DNA of 64,000 bases from a virus. Made by a program: the position numbers and the translations under genes. Shown piece by piece: positions 10,657 through 18,859 of the stretch (positions are counted from its first letter, which is position 1; each line of letters starts with the position of its first letter). The stretch is taken from the IMG/VR virus record IMGVR_UViG_3300025098_000014; one strand, written 5' to 3'. The notes under the pieces are model-generated. The model searched no databases and was not told the DNA's origin. It saw only the letters and a list, made by a program, of their open reading frames with translations.

Positions 10657-10792
10657 AGTACTCTACTGGATCATCAAGATTTTCTCGCGTATCTTGTTGA
10701 TATGCTTCTTTATTGGAAAATACTTCAGATTCCAATTCCTGAACGAGGGCTTTCATGGTTAAGACTAGACCCTTTAAAACTTGTCTATCCAT
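10622..10792 (-). CDS. Small acidic hypothetical protein (56 aa)
   Basis: MDRQVLK...ELESEVFS...DDDDGYPD; start moved to ATG 10792, downstream of the promoter. Confidence 0.65.
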   Translation of the reverse strand: MDRQVLKGLVLTMKALVQELESEVFSNKEAYQQDTRENLDDPVEYFADGDDDGYPD

Positions 10793-10813
10793 CAGAATAA
10801 TAAGGTTTTGTCT

Positions 10814-10853
10814 ATTATACACAAAAAAGGGGTCCCCGTCAAGGAACCCCTTT
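10814..10853 (-). promoter_or_regulatory. Intrinsic terminator fused with a sigma70 promoter (TTGACG-17-TATAAT)
   Basis: Hairpin AAAGGGGTTCC-TTGACG-GGGACCCCTTTTTT; -35 at 10837-10842 lies in the loop, -10 at 10814-10819. Confidence 0.75.
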
Positions 10854-10869
10854 ATCTATGTAAGCGTGA

Positions 10870-11037
10870 TCACTTGCTATAAGTTCTACCGCGATAGCAG
10901 AAAGTCCCGTGAGACTCTTTACTTTCTACACAACGGGTAGAATACTCAACACCACGATATGAAGTGTGGGTAATCTGTGCGTCATGCAAAGCAGATGCTT
11001 TTTGAATCTGCTTGCGAATGAGATTAAGTGTGTTCAT
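10870..11037 (-). CDS. DUF4278-like small protein downstream of the glutamine riboswitch (55 aa)
   Basis: MNTLNLIRKQI..., two YRG motifs (SYRGVEY, CYRGRTY); Shine-Dalgarno AGGAG 7 nt before the ATG. Confidence 0.75.
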   Translation of the reverse strand: MNTLNLIRKQIQKASALHDAQITHTSYRGVEYSTRCVESKESHGTFCYRGRTYSK

Positions 11038-11069
11038 GTTGTTACTCCTGAAGTTAGGGTGGTTTAATC

Positions 11070-11303
11070 CCCGTTCCTTCAGTCGTTTGCGTCCCAATAC
11101 CACTGACATTCTGGTGCTGAGTCCTTAAGGGTCTCAACTAACTCAACCTTAAGTGAATTACTAAGGTTAGTATTGTTCTCAATCTTCAACATAATAGCAT
11201 CAGTTTGAGTGCAACTGAGTGTTGTATAGAATAACAGTTCTAGCATGGGATGAACGGCTCCGTTCCGCGACTTACTTGCGTCCCACAGAGTGGGATGAAC
11301 GAC
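11070..11303 (-). ncRNA. Double glutamine-type riboswitch (glnA / Downstream-peptide family)
   Basis: Two CGUUCAUCCC...GGGACGCAA...GGAACG units, an AGUA/GAA E-loop-like motif and AGUCG/CGACU pairing, upstream of a DUF4278-like gene. Confidence 0.8.
11079..11246 (-). CDS. 55-aa ORF nested inside the riboswitch
   Basis: MLELLFYTTLSCTQTDAIMLKIENNTNLSNSLKVELVETLKDSAPECQWYWDAND*; below the ORF-track cutoff. Confidence 0.65.
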   Translation of the reverse strand: MLELLFYTTLSCTQTDAIMLKIENNTNLSNSLKVELVETLKDSAPECQWYWDAND

Positions 11304-11338
11304 AGGTCTATTATAGACCTCATACTGTATTTAGTCAA
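11304..11338 (-). promoter_or_regulatory. Sigma70 promoter TTGACT-17-TATAAT with an inverted repeat over the -10
   Basis: -35 at 11333-11338, -10 at 11310-11315; AGGTCTA-TAA-TAGACCT at 11304-11320. Confidence 0.8.
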
Positions 11339-11348
11339 CCCTATAGAG

Positions 11349-11402
11349 CAAAAAAAACCCGGAGATTTTTTCCCCGGATTCTTGAAATTAAAAGTTGAAT
11401 TA
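11349..11402 (-). terminator. Intrinsic terminator (repeat element copy 1)
   Basis: CCGGGGAAAAAATCTCCGGG followed by T8. Confidence 0.7.
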
Positions 11403-13384: not shown

Positions 13385-13944
13385 ACTTTATCGATATTCA
13401 TGGCGATTGCTATTCTTCTCCCCTTAGTTGGTGGAACAAGATGTGTAAGTAGTCCAGGGAATAAGACCATCATACCATTTTTAACATGCACTTCCTTGTC
13501 TTCTAAAAAGATAGGAGCAACATCTTCTTCAACATCTATGTAGTAGACGCATGACCATGCTGCAGAAAGGTGATCATGGGGAAGAGCTTGGTCACCCTTT
13601 TCCATGACAACTGCCCATAAGGACACCACTTTATAATCTGCATGAGTGTCAAAGACATGCTTCATGATGTATTTTAGCACATGCAAAGCATAATCGCCAA
13701 CAGGGAGAAATCTTTCGTCAGTTTCGCATGTGTCCCATTTGGTCAACCAGGCTTTAACAGAATGGCCTGCTGTCTCGTTAGTATCCAGATACTCTGGATC
13801 TTTCTCTCTTTTTTCTAAAATTATATCTTTGAATTTATTAAATTCTTCAGGACCATCTTCAATGACGAAGGTGGGCAGCTGACTGACCACCTTGTCGTAA
13901 TGAATAGTCTTAGATGTAGGTCCGTTCTCCATCCTGTCCACCAA
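13372..13944 (-). CDS. 2OG-Fe(II) oxygenase, paralogue of the preceding gene
   Basis: WAV......HDH, YYID, FPG.LTH.V, RIAIAMN; start uncertain. Confidence 0.8.
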   Translation of the reverse strand: MVDRMENGPTSKTIHYDKVVSQLPTFVIEDGPEEFNKFKDIILEKREKDPEYLDTNETAGHSVKAWLTKWDTCETDERFLPVGDYALHVLKYIMKHVFDTHADYKVVSLWAVVMEKGDQALPHDHLSAAWSCVYYIDVEEDVAPIFLEDKEVHVKNGMMVLFPGLLTHLVPPTKGRRIAIAMNIDKVCLP

Positions 13945-16900
13945 GCGTCATGATACTGAGTTCGCCCAAGTCTTCAAGGGCAGGGATTCCATTATACACC
14001 CTAACGGTATATCCGTTAACTGTTCTGTCAGAAATTCGTAAATTAACGATACCACCTGGGAAAGCATTTGTACCACTTGCGATACCAATGACAGCATAGT
14101 CAGTATCATTCATTGCATCAGCAAAGTTCACAGTGTATGTTCCTGTTGCAGTTTGTAAAATAGAACTTACATTGTGTGAACGATCTCCAGGGACATAATC
14201 ACTATTACCAACGCCCAGATTGCTGTTCATGTACCAGGAGGTAGCACGACCCTCATAGAACTGGGTGTAAGTAGCAGTCTTGAGACCTACAAGGTTCTTA
14301 AACTCCCCAACTCTGCTGACCTTATGGAAATCATTATTGAACACTTGGATGGAGTTACCCATGTTTCCAAATTGTGTTCCAACACCAGCACCATAGTAAA
14401 GTTGCTGTGGAGTGTTCTCGTCAATGAGAATTTCAGTATAAGTTCCAGTCTCAGTTACATTATCAGAGAACTGGTTCGGAGTTGTTGTACCAAATCCTAC
14501 TGCAGAACCATCTGGAGCATAGTAGAACCTGATCGGATAGTTTGCCTGCTGTGCTGCATTGGTAAAGCGATAGGTTTGACCTACTTCAAATCTCAGATAA
14601 GGTGATTCATAACCCTGAACATTGATAGAACGATCGGATCCAATACCAAAGTATCTGTGATCTGCTGTCTTTGTACCAATAGTAGTAGGTAGAGGCTTGA
14701 ATGTACCCTCAAACTCCGTGTAAAGGTTCTTAGCGGTGTCTGCAGCACCCGTTAAGGTGGAGAAACTAGAACTATTAGCAAAGAGTGCATTGTTTGCCTG
14801 AGAGGCGAGTCCAGCGAGCGTAGCGTAGGTAGCAATGCCAGCAATGATTGCTTCAGACGCAATGCCTGCAAGTGTAGCACGAGGTGCCTCGTTAATCGTT
14901 ACTGTAACGATACCAGCAGAGACTGGACTTACATCAAGACCAGCATTAAAGTTAACCGTTCCTGCTGTACCAACTGCGGATCCAGAATCTTGAACGATGA
15001 CACCAGAACCAGAAGCAACAATATTAGTTAACTGAGATCCGTCACCGATGAATCTCGGTGCAGTGATGTCATTACTAGATGTGATTGTAGCAGCAGAGTC
15101 TAATTGAGAAGCTGTTACTGCAGTTAATGCACTGTCAGCAGTAGTTGCCGAGGTTGCTGTAGTTGCTTGAGTAGCAATTCCGGCAACAGTTGCAAAGTCT
15201 GCTTGAGTTGCTTTCGGAACAGAAACACCAGCAGCAAGACTATTAGCAGTTTGTGCAATACTTACAGTATCCGCAGCAGTAATAGTGACAATACCAGCAG
15301 AGATAGGAGATACTGTCAGGTTTTGAGCGAAGTTAATAGTAGCAGCAGTGCCAACAGGACTATCATTGTCCTTAATAATAACACCTGCACCAACACCAGT
15401 TACACCAGTGATGCCGGAACCGTCACCAAAGAACGAATTTGCAGTGATATTACCAGTAGTATTAACATTAATATTTGTACCAATACCAGAAGGACCAGGA
15501 TCCTGAGGTACAGAGTGAGCAACAAATGTTAGGTTGGGTCTAGAACCACGAACAATTAGACTCTGACCTTTAGCAAGAGCAAGGTTATCAATCTGAACAT
15601 CTTGTAGAGGAGCCAGTCTTAGACCAAATACTAAGTAGTCAGACTCTTGGAACTCAGCGATACCGCCAGATGACAGACCGACTGACATACCAACAGTAGA
15701 ATCAGAGTTCTGGTTTGTAGCGTGAACTGTGACTAGACTATCTTCTTGTGCTGTAAAAAACTCAAGGTTAGTATTGATCTGGAAAGGAGGTTTAAATCCA
15801 AGAGTACCAGATCTTCTTCTGCCATGAACCAGAGCAGAGTCAGGACCTAACTTATCAAACTTTCTAGTAGCAAAGGCAAGGAAAGAGATGTTAGGGTCGA
15901 AAGAAGATACGAAAATTTTATCTCCAGGTTTAATACCAACTTTCTCAATCAGTCTCGTACCACCTCTTTCTAGAGGAATACCATAAGTGATAAAGTCACT
16001 CTGCTTAAATCCTGGTGTACTAGAGATACCAATAGAGAATGTAGAGCGGAAGTCATTCTGGTTTGCAACACTGATACTAACCTCAAGGAGGTTATCTGAC
16101 TCATACAACTGAACGGGCTCAACAACACCATTCGTCAGTGTTGTTTTAATAGAAGCAAGTCTACCTACCTCGGCAAGAGCGGCACCAGGAGTGGTGAATG
16201 TGACGACTGCTGAGAAAGGAGATGCATGTGCAACACCAGATGTGCCATCAGCATTAGATAGATGACGACATCTTACATAGAAAGTATGACTAGAGTTAAG
16301 TCCATCAGGAATTATTTGAGATAGAGAAGTATTATTATCACCAACACTAGTAAATACTATGGTAGTAAATCCACTATCTTCAGCAACTTCAAATTCAACT
16401 GCTTTTAAAGTACCAGATACTGCTTCACTATCAATAGAAACAAATGCACTGGATACAAGAGCAATACCAAATCTCTGATTTAGAGTAGTTCCACTAATAG
16501 GTGATGTAATAGTAGGTGCTTGAACACCAGGAGCATTACCTAAGGTAGAGAATGAAACAATACCTACAGAATAATCAGATGTATAAGAAGTGAATGCGGT
16601 GCCATCATCGTTAGATAAATGTCTGACACGGGCATAGTGTGTAGTGAAACCTGCTAACTGAACATCAACTGTTTGAATTACATTAGTATCATTATCTCCA
16701 GTAGATTCCCAAACAATAGAACTAAAGTCAGATGCGACTGAGAGTTGCATCTCAATTGCTTTTAGAGTACCAGATACGGTAGTGTCTCCAATAGCAACAT
16801 ATTGACTAGATCTTAATTGTAGTCCTTCAGTACTAATACCAATATCATTATTAACTGGAGATTCAACAGAGGGTTCTGTAATACCACCAAATTCTGTTAA

Positions 16901-18859
16901 GATACCTGCGCTGACATCCAAGTAAGCAATTTGGACTAGACCATCTCCAGTGGCAGTTCTTTGATTAAACTGTCCAGTCCACCATCGGTAATCAGAGACA
17001 CCATAGTCAACAGTAGAGAACTGATCGAATAGTAAGTCAGTACCGGTACTAGTACTACCATAAGAAATGAGATTACTAGTACCACCATAACCTGCAGTAC
17101 CCTTACCAACACCTTGTCCACAATCGTTTAATAACCACTTCCTCAAATCTTCAGATGTAGCACCGGGGTTTCTCTGTAGGTATAAAGCAATCAGTCCAGT
17201 AACTACAGGAGCAGCAGCAGATGTACCGTTGAAGTTGGCATCGAAATGAGTAGGGTTATCATATCTCTGGAAGTCTGCATAAGTTCCGCTAGGAAGACCA
17301 GCAGCTAGAGTATCCTCGGCAGGTGCATAAATGTCAACACCAGGACCACTGTTAGAATATTGTGCTTTTCTTTCTTTAAAATTAGATTCTACAAAGTCAT
17401 CAAGAGCACCCACATTAATAACAGGATGGTATCCAGTAAACTCATTAAATCCAATACCCTGAGGGTTCATCCAATCTCTATGAGATGTTGGTGTTCTCTG
17501 TCCACCAAACTCAGTCCTTGGATCATTAACACCGAATCTTAAATCCTCAACTCCATTAAGTCTATGAGGATCCGTAAATCCAAGACCAATATACTGGTTG
17601 TTATTACCAGCAGCAGCGACCATAATGACACCGGCTTCCATCATCTCATCGCCAGCAGTATTAGTGGCGTTAGATCTAGATGAAGAAGACCAGGATTTAT
17701 AAGCACCAAGCACTTGATTATTGAAACCAATAATCATATCCTCAACGCCAGATGGATCTCCAGCAGAGAGAGTTGATACATCAATGGTGCTAGAAATACC
17801 AGTAAATTTATATCTTGCAACTCCTGTTGCGTTGACAGCAGCCTGATAACCCCAAGAACCATTAACAACCGTAGGATTTCTTACACCAGTTTGCGTATTT
17901 ACTGGTTTATATAAGTGGAAGAACTTAATGAGATCATAAGATGTCTCAATGTCCATACCAACATTATCAGACACACAAGGCATTGCCCAGATGTTTGACT
18001 TAAATGCCAGACCAAAGTTTTTACCAGCAGCAAGAGATGCAGTTGCAGTACCGTGACCATCGCCTAAGTCGTTGCTACCTGATGTGCCAATACCAATAGC
18101 ACCATTCCTATTGTATCCAGAAGGAATAGAAACTTCAGGAAGAAGAACAAACTCAGAAGATCTAGCGTTGTTATCTTCCCACCATGCTTCTGCTCTGCTG
18201 GTATCAATACCAATAGATCCATCTTCTAATGTAAAAGTAAACCCGTTAACAGCAAAATATCCAGGATCAAGATAATATGGGAAGTCAAGAACGAGATCAA
18301 GCACCCTACTTGTTCCGTCATCGTTCAAGAATTCTGGGTGTGATTGCAGAGTACCAGAGTCTTGAACAACAATATCTACATTTCTACCATCATATAAGAA
18401 CTCAAAGTTACCTTGCTTAGGTGCAATATCACCAACTACACCAGCCCAAAACTCTCCATTGGTTGTAATACCAGAAAGTCTAGGAAGTGCCCAGTTCGTT
18501 CTATTTAATTCTGCAGAGGTTGGATTTGTGGCTGGTGGGCCATTACTATCTAAGTCCCTGTAAATTTTTACATCACCAGAAAATCTGTTGGGCATCACCA
18601 GAGATGGATCTGGAAAGCTTTCTCTATTATCTTTTAGTGAAAGTTCAATCCACTTGACATAAGGATGACGACCAATCTCTTGAGCCTCATCATCCGTTAA
18701 CTCATAAGTACCACGAACCGCACTGATTGAGTGCGAGTCGGTACAAGTTATTTGTCTGTCTGGAATTCCATCTTGGTTTGAGTCAATGGTGAGAGCACCA
18801 TGAATATCATTCCAATGTTCTGCACTGGTAACTGCCAGGGTATATCTTTTAAGAGTCAT
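13910..18859 (-). CDS. Subtilisin-like S8 peptidase fused to virion/fibre-type repeat domains (1649 aa)
   Basis: Catalytic motifs VVQDSG, GHGTATAS, AAGN and NGTSAAAP; C-terminal half has duplicated beta domains and a fibre-tip-like end. Confidence 0.85.
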   Translation of the reverse strand: MTLKRYTLAVTSAEHWNDIHGALTIDSNQDGIPDRQITCTDSHSISAVRGTYELTDDEAQEIGRHPYVKWIELSLKDNRESFPDPSLVMPNRFSGDVKIYRDLDSNGPPATNPTSAELNRTNWALPRLSGITTNGEFWAGVVGDIAPKQGNFEFLYDGRNVDIVVQDSGTLQSHPEFLNDDGTSRVLDLVLDFPYYLDPGYFAVNGFTFTLEDGSIGIDTSRAEAWWEDNNARSSEFVLLPEVSIPSGYNRNGAIGIGTSGSNDLGDGHGTATASLAAGKNFGLAFKSNIWAMPCVSDNVGMDIETSYDLIKFFHLYKPVNTQTGVRNPTVVNGSWGYQAAVNATGVARYKFTGISSTIDVSTLSAGDPSGVEDMIIGFNNQVLGAYKSWSSSSRSNATNTAGDEMMEAGVIMVAAAGNNNQYIGLGFTDPHRLNGVEDLRFGVNDPRTEFGGQRTPTSHRDWMNPQGIGFNEFTGYHPVINVGALDDFVESNFKERKAQYSNSGPGVDIYAPAEDTLAAGLPSGTYADFQRYDNPTHFDANFNGTSAAAPVVTGLIALYLQRNPGATSEDLRKWLLNDCGQGVGKGTAGYGGTSNLISYGSTSTGTDLLFDQFSTVDYGVSDYRWWTGQFNQRTATGDGLVQIAYLDVSAGILTEFGGITEPSVESPVNNDIGISTEGLQLRSSQYVAIGDTTVSGTLKAIEMQLSVASDFSSIVWESTGDNDTNVIQTVDVQLAGFTTHYARVRHLSNDDGTAFTSYTSDYSVGIVSFSTLGNAPGVQAPTITSPISGTTLNQRFGIALVSSAFVSIDSEAVSGTLKAVEFEVAEDSGFTTIVFTSVGDNNTSLSQIIPDGLNSSHTFYVRCRHLSNADGTSGVAHASPFSAVVTFTTPGAALAEVGRLASIKTTLTNGVVEPVQLYESDNLLEVSISVANQNDFRSTFSIGISSTPGFKQSDFITYGIPLERGGTRLIEKVGIKPGDKIFVSSFDPNISFLAFATRKFDKLGPDSALVHGRRRSGTLGFKPPFQINTNLEFFTAQEDSLVTVHATNQNSDSTVGMSVGLSSGGIAEFQESDYLVFGLRLAPLQDVQIDNLALAKGQSLIVRGSRPNLTFVAHSVPQDPGPSGIGTNINVNTTGNITANSFFGDGSGITGVTGVGAGVIIKDNDSPVGTAATINFAQNLTVSPISAGIVTITAADTVSIAQTANSLAAGVSVPKATQADFATVAGIATQATTATSATTADSALTAVTASQLDSAATITSSNDITAPRFIGDGSQLTNIVASGSGVIVQDSGSAVGTAGTVNFNAGLDVSPVSAGIVTVTINEAPRATLAGIASEAIIAGIATYATLAGLASQANNALFANSSSFSTLTGAADTAKNLYTEFEGTFKPLPTTIGTKTADHRYFGIGSDRSINVQGYESPYLRFEVGQTYRFTNAAQQANYPIRFYYAPDGSAVGFGTTTPNQFSDNVTETGTYTEILIDENTPQQLYYGAGVGTQFGNMGNSIQVFNNDFHKVSRVGEFKNLVGLKTATYTQFYEGRATSWYMNSNLGVGNSDYVPGDRSHNVSSILQTATGTYTVNFADAMNDTDYAVIGIASGTNAFPGGIVNLRISDRTVNGYTVRVYNGIPALEDLGELSIMTLGGQDGERTYI

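Follow-up and report, generated by a model that had tools for sequence, protein, structure and literature searches.

A candidate glutamine riboswitch of two nested aptamer cores with a protein-coding gene in its interior

How can a metabolite-binding RNA hold a whole gene within one of its stems, and what might such an arrangement control? The question is raised by a short locus in a viral DNA segment of 64,000 nucleotides (IMG/VR record IMGVR_UViG_3300025098_000014, the whole of which is referred to here as the window). A preliminary description had noted two glutamine-riboswitch-like units, the second with an open reading frame (ORF) replacing its P2 loop, and all of the features that it listed are present on the minus strand where claimed, including a TTGACT-17-TATAAT promoter at 11338-11310. 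The repetition of the unit holds up; the 7-nt P2 loop given for the first copy can pair further, which lengthens the stem to 6 bp and leaves a loop of 3 nt. The UCCC-AUG junction is present, and the inner P2 can further include the A of the AUG (an A-U pair with the Trp codon); the segments AGUCG and CGACU (11272-11268 and 11085-11081) are complementary and flanked by AGUA and GAA; and the terminal Trp-Asp-Ala-Asn-Asp-stop (WDAND) codons do coincide with aptamer bases. Four aspects are absent from that description: a helix that pairs with the downstream Shine-Dalgarno sequence (the anti-SD helix), the Shine-Dalgarno (SD) sequence of the nested gene, the optional and exchangeable nature of the ORF, which can also lie in the outer P2, and the fixing of the WDAND tail by the RNA.

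From its sequence, the window is assigned to a T4-like cyanophage. The ORFs neighbouring the element match phage families, and the closest relatives of the region are Synechococcus phages with ~70% identity. The element belongs to a self-contained minus-strand unit of ~470 nt, in which the RNA and two 55-codon genes are preceded by a terminator and a promoter and followed by another terminator. Its features are as follows.

11353..11383, minus strand: intrinsic terminator at the end of the upstream operon (13-pair stem and T run)
11310..11338, minus strand: sigma-70-type promoter TTGACT-17-TATAAT, 11/12 consensus matches, predicted start ~11303
11328..11334, minus strand: late-promoter-like CTAAATA overlapping the -35 region, putative role
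11304..11320, minus strand: 7-bp palindrome spanning the -10 box, putative function
11296..11301, minus strand: 5' P1 strand of the outer core, CGUUCA, in which C1 is a ligand contact; partner 11071-11077
11281..11295, minus strand: outer P2 hairpin, two-sided changes at 4/4 pairs
11273..11280, minus strand: outer linker CGC (ligand contacts, PMC6698751) and E-loop strand AGUA, nearly invariant
11268..11272, minus strand: 5' strand of the shared P3, AGUCG, covarying with 11081-11085 in several sequence types
11260..11266, minus strand: inner core P1 strand GGAACG and the G of the long-range pair, 5' of its partner 11251-11256 (permuted)
11258..11261, minus strand: GGAG within the inner P1 loop, Shine-Dalgarno of the nested gene
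11251..11256, minus strand: CGUUCA strand of the inner core
11246..11250, minus strand: 5' strand of the inner P2, taking in the first base of the AUG; pairing across the ORF in 100% of 66 sequences
11079..11246, minus strand: nested 55-aa gene (phrog_504; T4-like gene cluster 430)
11089..11096, minus strand: 3' strand of the inner P2 and inner linker CGC, inside the Trp-Asp-Ala codons
11081..11085, minus strand: 3' strand of the shared P3, CGACU, running into the stop codon
11071..11080, minus strand: E-loop strand GAA and 3' strand of the outer P1
11077..11082, minus strand: 5' strand of the anti-SD helix, across the stop codon and E-loop
11045..11053, minus strand: 3' strand of the anti-SD helix, overlapping AGGAG (11049-11045)
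10870..11037, minus strand: downstream 55-aa DUF4278-like gene (phrog_545), two YRGxxY motifs
10826..10853, minus strand: intrinsic terminator at the end of the two-gene unit

A loose sigma-70 pattern lies upstream of the element in 175/236 relatives, and 165/236 have TAAATA at -25 to -34 relative to the aptamer; the CTAAATA of the window is a possible second, late start. The palindrome across the -10 box retains its shape across relatives while its sequence varies, with a hairpin of at least 6 bp there in 170/236 relatives compared with 151/4720 shuffles, and it could form the 5' hairpin of a late transcript. NtcA boxes, which are known in cyanophages in general (PMC3037559), lie 5' of the -10 box in 82/245 relatives, at a distance of 25-33 nt (0-10 for control spacer lengths), and the window itself has none. 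Canonical boxes occur 52-61 nt 5' of the aptamer, adjoining the -35 hexamer (e.g. loci L001, L045, L085, and L091), at two spacings ~6 nt apart; in phages S-RIM2, S-P4, and S-SSM5 the box instead lies over the -10 region. In four metatranscriptome studies, contigs of relatives span portions of 10787-11304, none of them extending past the predicted start; being short, derived from different strains, and potentially DNA, they were given no weight. At 10814-10842 (minus strand) lies a second near-consensus sigma-70 promoter, with its -35 hexamer within the terminator hairpin of the riboswitch unit. Elsewhere in the window, a 1649-aa ORF (13910-18859, minus strand) has subtilisin-like motifs, recognized by eye, in its N-terminal part, and beyond these come segments that are repeat-rich and tail-fibre-like.

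The two units could fold either as interlocked tandem aptamers or as an outer glnA-type aptamer holding a permuted inner one; both folds had been put forward, and covariation decides for the second. Relatives gathered by protein similarity and by RNA motifs give 276 distinct complete elements. The layout is kept among the protein-selected relatives and is therefore not due to chance; in a second protein-selected set 68 of 75 parse fully, and the other seven are truncated, carry a loop insert, or deviate by one base or a small insertion. In this set, two unusual P1 combinations proved to be parsing artefacts. The fifth pair of P1 varies among relatives, and where the middle strand GGAACG is changed to GCAACG the CGUUCA that follows it becomes CGUUGA (80/80 cases), just as a last strand changed to GAAACG is accompanied by a first strand CGUUUA (15/15 cases). 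One motif search required both sides of the inner change, whereas three others fixed one side only and returned no discordant case. On a tree built from the unconstrained codons of the ORF the inner change tracks its nested partner in 8/8 independent pairs (p 0.008) and does not track the tandem partner; the outer change provides just two independent pairs.

The remaining helices behave similarly, and the compensatory changes proposed as a test in the preliminary description are found in P1, P2, and P3 of the cyanophage orthologues. When 66 sequences are aligned to the nested structure 99.9% of cells are paired and eight pairs have changed on both sides, whereas the tandem structure leaves one P1 pair broken in 17 and 18 sequences. 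P3 covaries by exchanges of single pairs and also takes the form of two entirely different helices, and the inner P2 is paired across the ORF in 66/66 sequences, with one two-sided change and several wobble changes. The three-way junction of P1, P2, and P3 is thus supported by covariation, and the element almost certainly adopts a nested fold in which the P3 of an outer glnA-type junction leads into a circularly permuted second core. Two serial aptamers, each closed by its own P1 and joined by a kissing P3, would be compatible with the window itself, where the strands are identical and both P1 pairings are possible; tandem glnA RNAs are already known (PMC2864571), and Rfam aligns each unit alone in some ORF-less relatives. 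Such an arrangement would nonetheless create C-C, U-C, G-G, or G-A mismatches in 80/276 relatives in which the nested pairing is perfect, and its constrained fold in the window is less stable (-68.4 versus -71.3 kcal/mol). Covariation across relatives contradicts two serial self-closing P1s; we rejected this fold and consider it extremely improbable.

The known glutamine pocket consists of a C1:G40 pair, a G18-G2:C39 triple, and a long-range C19:G41 pair, and is nearly the same in glutamine-I and glutamine-II riboswitches (PMC6698751). Both cores of the element retain every known glutamine-contact base when checked by sequence. The G of the long-range pair follows GGAACG in 236/236 inner and 233/236 outer cores, although most searches were anchored on ligand-contact bases, a bias of which the protein-selected sets are free. 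The outer core of the window has an AGUA/GAA E-loop beside P3, with AAA or CAA also used in relatives. The inner core has neither an E-loop nor the glutamine-II pseudoknot, and merely 2-3 nt join its long-range G to C1; its unpaired contact bases (the CGC linker, the long-range G, and A6) are nearly invariant, ORF-less forms included. A split glutamine-II aptamer still binds its ligand, with the pocket assembling from two separate strands (PMC6698751). Glutamine is very probably bound by at least the outer core.

Assignment to a riboswitch family is less direct. The Rfam scan of the window gives sub-threshold matches only, on the first unit (24.8 bits with RF01704, threshold 33; 24.7 bits with RF01739, threshold 35). 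A comparison with and without the insert had been suggested earlier, and nature provides it: the window fails both models, but an ORF-less orthologue in phage ACG-2014f (L738:579-670) passes RF01739 with 41.1 bits against the threshold of 35, the match covering the whole outer aptamer. Another ORF-less form reaches 34.1 bits on RF01739. The hallmark of glutamine-II, GGAACG in the loop of a P2 stem that forms a pseudoknot, was looked for and there is no such stem; the corresponding stem of the RF01704 model is unpaired. Because the insert splits the aptamer, we file the element as a probable variant of the glutamine-I riboswitch rather than as a plain member.

Can a permuted core function at all? 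A glnA-type aptamer of this permuted form, with P2 closing from the outside and P1 reduced to a small hairpin, stands alone in 14/201 genomes of one gammaproteobacterial order, all of them small (G001, G424, G441, G486, G497, G515, G522, G529, G536, G550, G564, G578, G585, and G592). In these marine Gammaproteobacteria it mostly precedes glutamine-synthetase-like or TonB-receptor-like genes, as named from their N-terminal sequences. Rfam scores these aptamers at 23-31 bits with the wrong 5' strand, or does not match them, and we found no published description of a stand-alone permuted glnA-type aptamer. Their occurrence suggests that the permuted core is viable. The loci (L713:1500-1650 and L719-L735) sometimes contain the aptamer in tandem.

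The ORF within the inner P2 is, by its pattern of substitution, a real conserved gene under purifying selection. The protein is 91% identical to its counterparts in Syn1 and S-RIM44, and phrog_504 is annotated as a hypothetical protein in cultured phages. The low dN/dS and preserved frame that the preliminary description had put forward as a test are both observed: dN/dS is 0.23 for the window against its relatives and 0.26-0.29 overall, and among 171 distinct ORFs the frame is always open, the other two frames always contain stops, and length changes come in multiples of three. The peptide has a hydrophobic N-terminus and two invariant cysteines, between which AlphaFold predicts a helical hairpin (pLDDT 78). 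It has no Pfam family, its Atlas clusters are unnamed, and Foldseek gave no PDB match at E 0.001 and only its own relatives in a viral library. The Asp and Ala codons of the tail are identical in 61/61 ORFs, whereas GAC is used for other Asp codons in 37/146; this count is taken from protein-selected ORFs, as loci chosen by RNA pattern would make it circular. A protein role for the WDAND tail is not needed, since the S-TIM54 version has a stop at the Trp codon and that of S-CAM1 ends before the aptamer. These codons are set by the RNA rather than by the protein.

The initiation region of the nested gene is likewise embedded in the fold. The AUG lies 3-5 nt after CGUUCA in 227/228 elements, and the loop that closes the inner P1 has a GGAG, at 10-11 nt from the AUG, in 193/259 ORF-bearing and 0/17 ORF-less elements, counts that are uncorrected for relatedness and in which nine of the 17 are of one nuclease-borne type; it is missing from the loop in the other 66/259. 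In some relatives the inner loop is empty or holds other peptides, such that the ORF is both optional and exchangeable, with several clusters represented, and ORF-less versions occur in cultured phages among others. The cysteine count is exactly two in each of the 299 cargo peptides that are not nucleases, and every cluster has a hydrophobic N-terminus, which suggests that the cargo may be exported or membrane-anchored disulfide hairpins. The outer P2 often contains a gene as well. A second two-cysteine gene (phrog_6471) occupies the outer P2 loop at L083:465-665, L086:456-656, and L736:131-331 and in ~40 viral contigs, where both loops carry genes; its start is ~10 nt from the presumed transcript 5' end, leaving no room for an SD.

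Nuclease genes are also found within and around the switch. At L069:1700-2340, and also in L406, L413, L424, L481, and L496, the switch is followed by an inserted 183-aa endonuclease VII/HNH-like gene, which sits in the outer P2 loop of its own nested double aptamer, which has a different P3 and would restore control of the downstream gene; in L483 the nuclease is deleted and the fold is intact. A 193-aa homing-endonuclease-like gene is inserted in the inner P1 loop at L325:2240-2835 and in L330, with remnants in L034, L664, and L712. This insert puts ~600 nt between the inner P1 strands, and the compensatory change is kept.

Endonuclease genes are known to sit as passengers in intron loops, and the stem loops here might similarly be neutral parking places, such that the double aptamer regulates the downstream gene only. 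The ORF-less versions, the exchange of cargo among several clusters, the homing endonuclease genes in an inner P1 loop and an outer P2, and the phages in which the ORF ends before the aptamer tail are all compatible with this idea. We think it quite unlikely, given that the nested gene is under purifying selection, the two cysteines and hydrophobic N-termini are maintained in the non-nuclease cargo, the AUG is fixed relative to CGUUCA, and GGAG is in the loop only when an ORF is present.

Immediately beyond the aptamer, both the AGGAG and the DUF4278-like gene of the preliminary description are in place, but the match to Pfam DUF4278 (E 2.5e-4, 21.8 bits) is below the cut-off of 25.3. The YRG motif is present in 252/256 downstream ORFs, and YRGxxY is typical of glutamine-riboswitch targets (PMC2864571 supplement). 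The downstream gene encodes only 55 aa in comparison with IF17, the glutamine synthetase inactivating factor of the gifB system, and marine IF17-like peptides are without the C-terminal glutamine synthetase-binding region (PMC6212724).

Six bases across the stop codon of the nested gene pair with six overlapping the downstream AGGAG to form the anti-SD helix. A UAA stop is invariably matched by a U in the partner strand (A-C in 0/70), whereas with UGA it is C in 88/153 and U in 65; a metagenome set, which partly overlaps the viral set, again has A-C in 0/19. About 11/16 independent pairs change together at this helix and none in the opposite sense, and the stop codon lies on the anti-SD strand in 211/228 ORF-bearing elements. 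An optional extra hairpin module of ~27 nt with a variable stem is located between the aptamer and the anti-SD partner in L005, L085, L089, and L736, with the anti-SD pairing kept. The helix is mutually exclusive with P3, the E-loop, and the outer P1, and it dominates the ligand-free fold (pairing probability ~1.0 in the window, with a median of 0.99 over 60 relatives); a model that ignores tertiary contacts places the nested fold 9 kcal/mol above the anti-SD fold. For the host gifB ON switch, the proposal is that glutamine exposes the ribosome site (PMC6212724), and the pairing observed here points to the downstream gene probably being switched on by glutamine in the same sense.

It follows from the geometry of the modelled fold that a ribosome translating the nested ORF would have to open the inner P2 and P3, and the reading towards which we lean is a reciprocal one, in which glutamine would activate the downstream gene and silence the nested one. 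When glutamine is scarce, the outer junction would be unformed and the anti-SD helix would hold the DUF4278-like gene largely off, while the nested gene would be open to ribosomes, above all in the time before its distant P2 partner is transcribed. Each passing ribosome would open the inner P2 and P3, and its stopping would briefly open the anti-SD helix; without glutamine, ribosomes on the nested gene would hold the aptamer open and might give low, coupled expression downstream. At high glutamine both cores would lock, the E-loop taking the anti-SD strand such that the downstream gene is turned on, and the SD and AUG of the nested gene would be caged, turning it off. During infection the RNA would then respond to nitrogen status by switching reciprocally between two products, one a two-cysteine peptide and the other a YRG peptide.

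Both the inner P1 and the inner P2 form in the ligand-free energy model (inner P2 median 0.96 among relatives), and because the inner P2 is closed without ligand, it may be folding kinetics and not glutamine that gates the nested gene. For the same reason the main rival to the reciprocal model is one in which the outer core alone senses glutamine, and the inner hairpin and long-range P2 constitute a timed gate independent of ligand: the nested gene would be translated only in the brief interval before its own 3' end is made, the ribosome would hand translation on downstream, and the nested gene would not be regulated by glutamine. The absence of an E-loop from the inner core is in keeping with this, and the position of the stop codon on the anti-SD strand is ideal for translational coupling. 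The near-invariance of the inner contact bases extends to ORF-less forms that need no gate, and the permuted core stands alone before glutamine-synthetase-like genes; on these grounds we regard the ligand-independent gate as unlikely.

The fold could also be real but respond to another signal, either a metabolite or a protein, or serve mainly in transcript stabilisation or processing. The architecture is unlike both known classes, and neither product is a demonstrated nitrogen-function protein. With all glutamine contacts intact, the YRG motif in the downstream ORFs, and NtcA boxes in a third of relatives, we judge this very unlikely and retain the reciprocal glutamine model.

How widespread is the element? 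Relatives of the nested gene number ~310 in cultured cyanophage records and those of the downstream gene 372, many from near-identical isolates, and the RNA is present in 19/19 cultured myovirus loci examined that have a true relative of either gene. The layout is absent from the phage B3 match and from siphovirus S-CRES1. The nested pattern was found in 1/401 genomes from the family of a Synechococcus genome (L716, G384:C1, ~190950), among cyanomyovirus-type genes; a host origin was rejected, the phage-type neighbours indicating that this is probably a phage contig in the assembly. A looser scan of genome contigs gave mostly chance matches among those listed.

Glutamine riboswitches, tandem copies of them, and occasional phage copies are already published. 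A riboswitch survey counted just two glutamine aptamers among cyanophage genomes, and its conclusion was that riboswitches are rarely used by phages (PMC5473149); elements of the present type are mostly missed by family scans because genes sit inside the aptamer. The literature search, which did not extend to the first tandem glnA study, yielded no account of glutamine aptamers that are nested or permuted, nor of an aptamer with genes in its interior. We suggest, tentatively, that the element as a whole combines two pockets through the nesting of a permuted core, takes translation of the loop genes as a further input, and drives two genes in opposite directions, and that in this form it might be widespread in marine cyanomyoviruses as a direct reading of host nitrogen status. 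If it works in this way, direct metabolite sensing would be common among abundant ocean viruses, the element would be a natural permuted and nested aptamer in which folding of the sensor competes with translation of its own interior, and two conserved phage peptides would be linked to nitrogen status.

Comparison with known systems places the element closest to the glutamine riboswitches. Tandem glnA RNAs (PMC2864571) similarly have two glutamine pockets per leader, but those described are serial, whereas the two here are nested with a shared P3. Glutamine-II (Downstream-peptide RNA, RF01704; PMC6698751) has the same pocket with a CGC linker, precedes YRGxxY peptides, and can assemble its pocket from two pieces; in contrast, the element has no pseudoknot stem around GGAACG, and its inner P1 has a loop of 3-4 nt and a reversed strand order. 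With glutamine-I (RF01739; the Synechocystis gifB leader, PMC6212724; structure 5DDP as given in PMC6698751) the outer core shares the P1/P2/P3 junction, the AGUA/GAA E-loop, and the ligand contacts. Glutamine-I, an ON switch in the gifB leader, likewise precedes a DUF4278-like gene, and the anti-SD helix here matches the pairing that hides the ribosome site of host gifB (PMC6212724). It differs from glutamine-I in that P3 ends in a second, permuted core rather than a loop, the P2 loops hold whole genes, the halves are ~225 nt apart, the 3' half doubles as coding sequence, and the element is phage-borne.

Parallels for a gene within a structured RNA exist elsewhere. Group I introns hold ORFs in their peripheral loops, in leader-peptide attenuators the ribosome remodels a regulatory fold, and in the MS2 maturation gene a delayed long-range pairing closes the start site after a folding window. 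The element differs from all three in being a candidate metabolite sensor without splicing, in which the looped gene encodes a conserved protein under purifying selection and not a sensor peptide.
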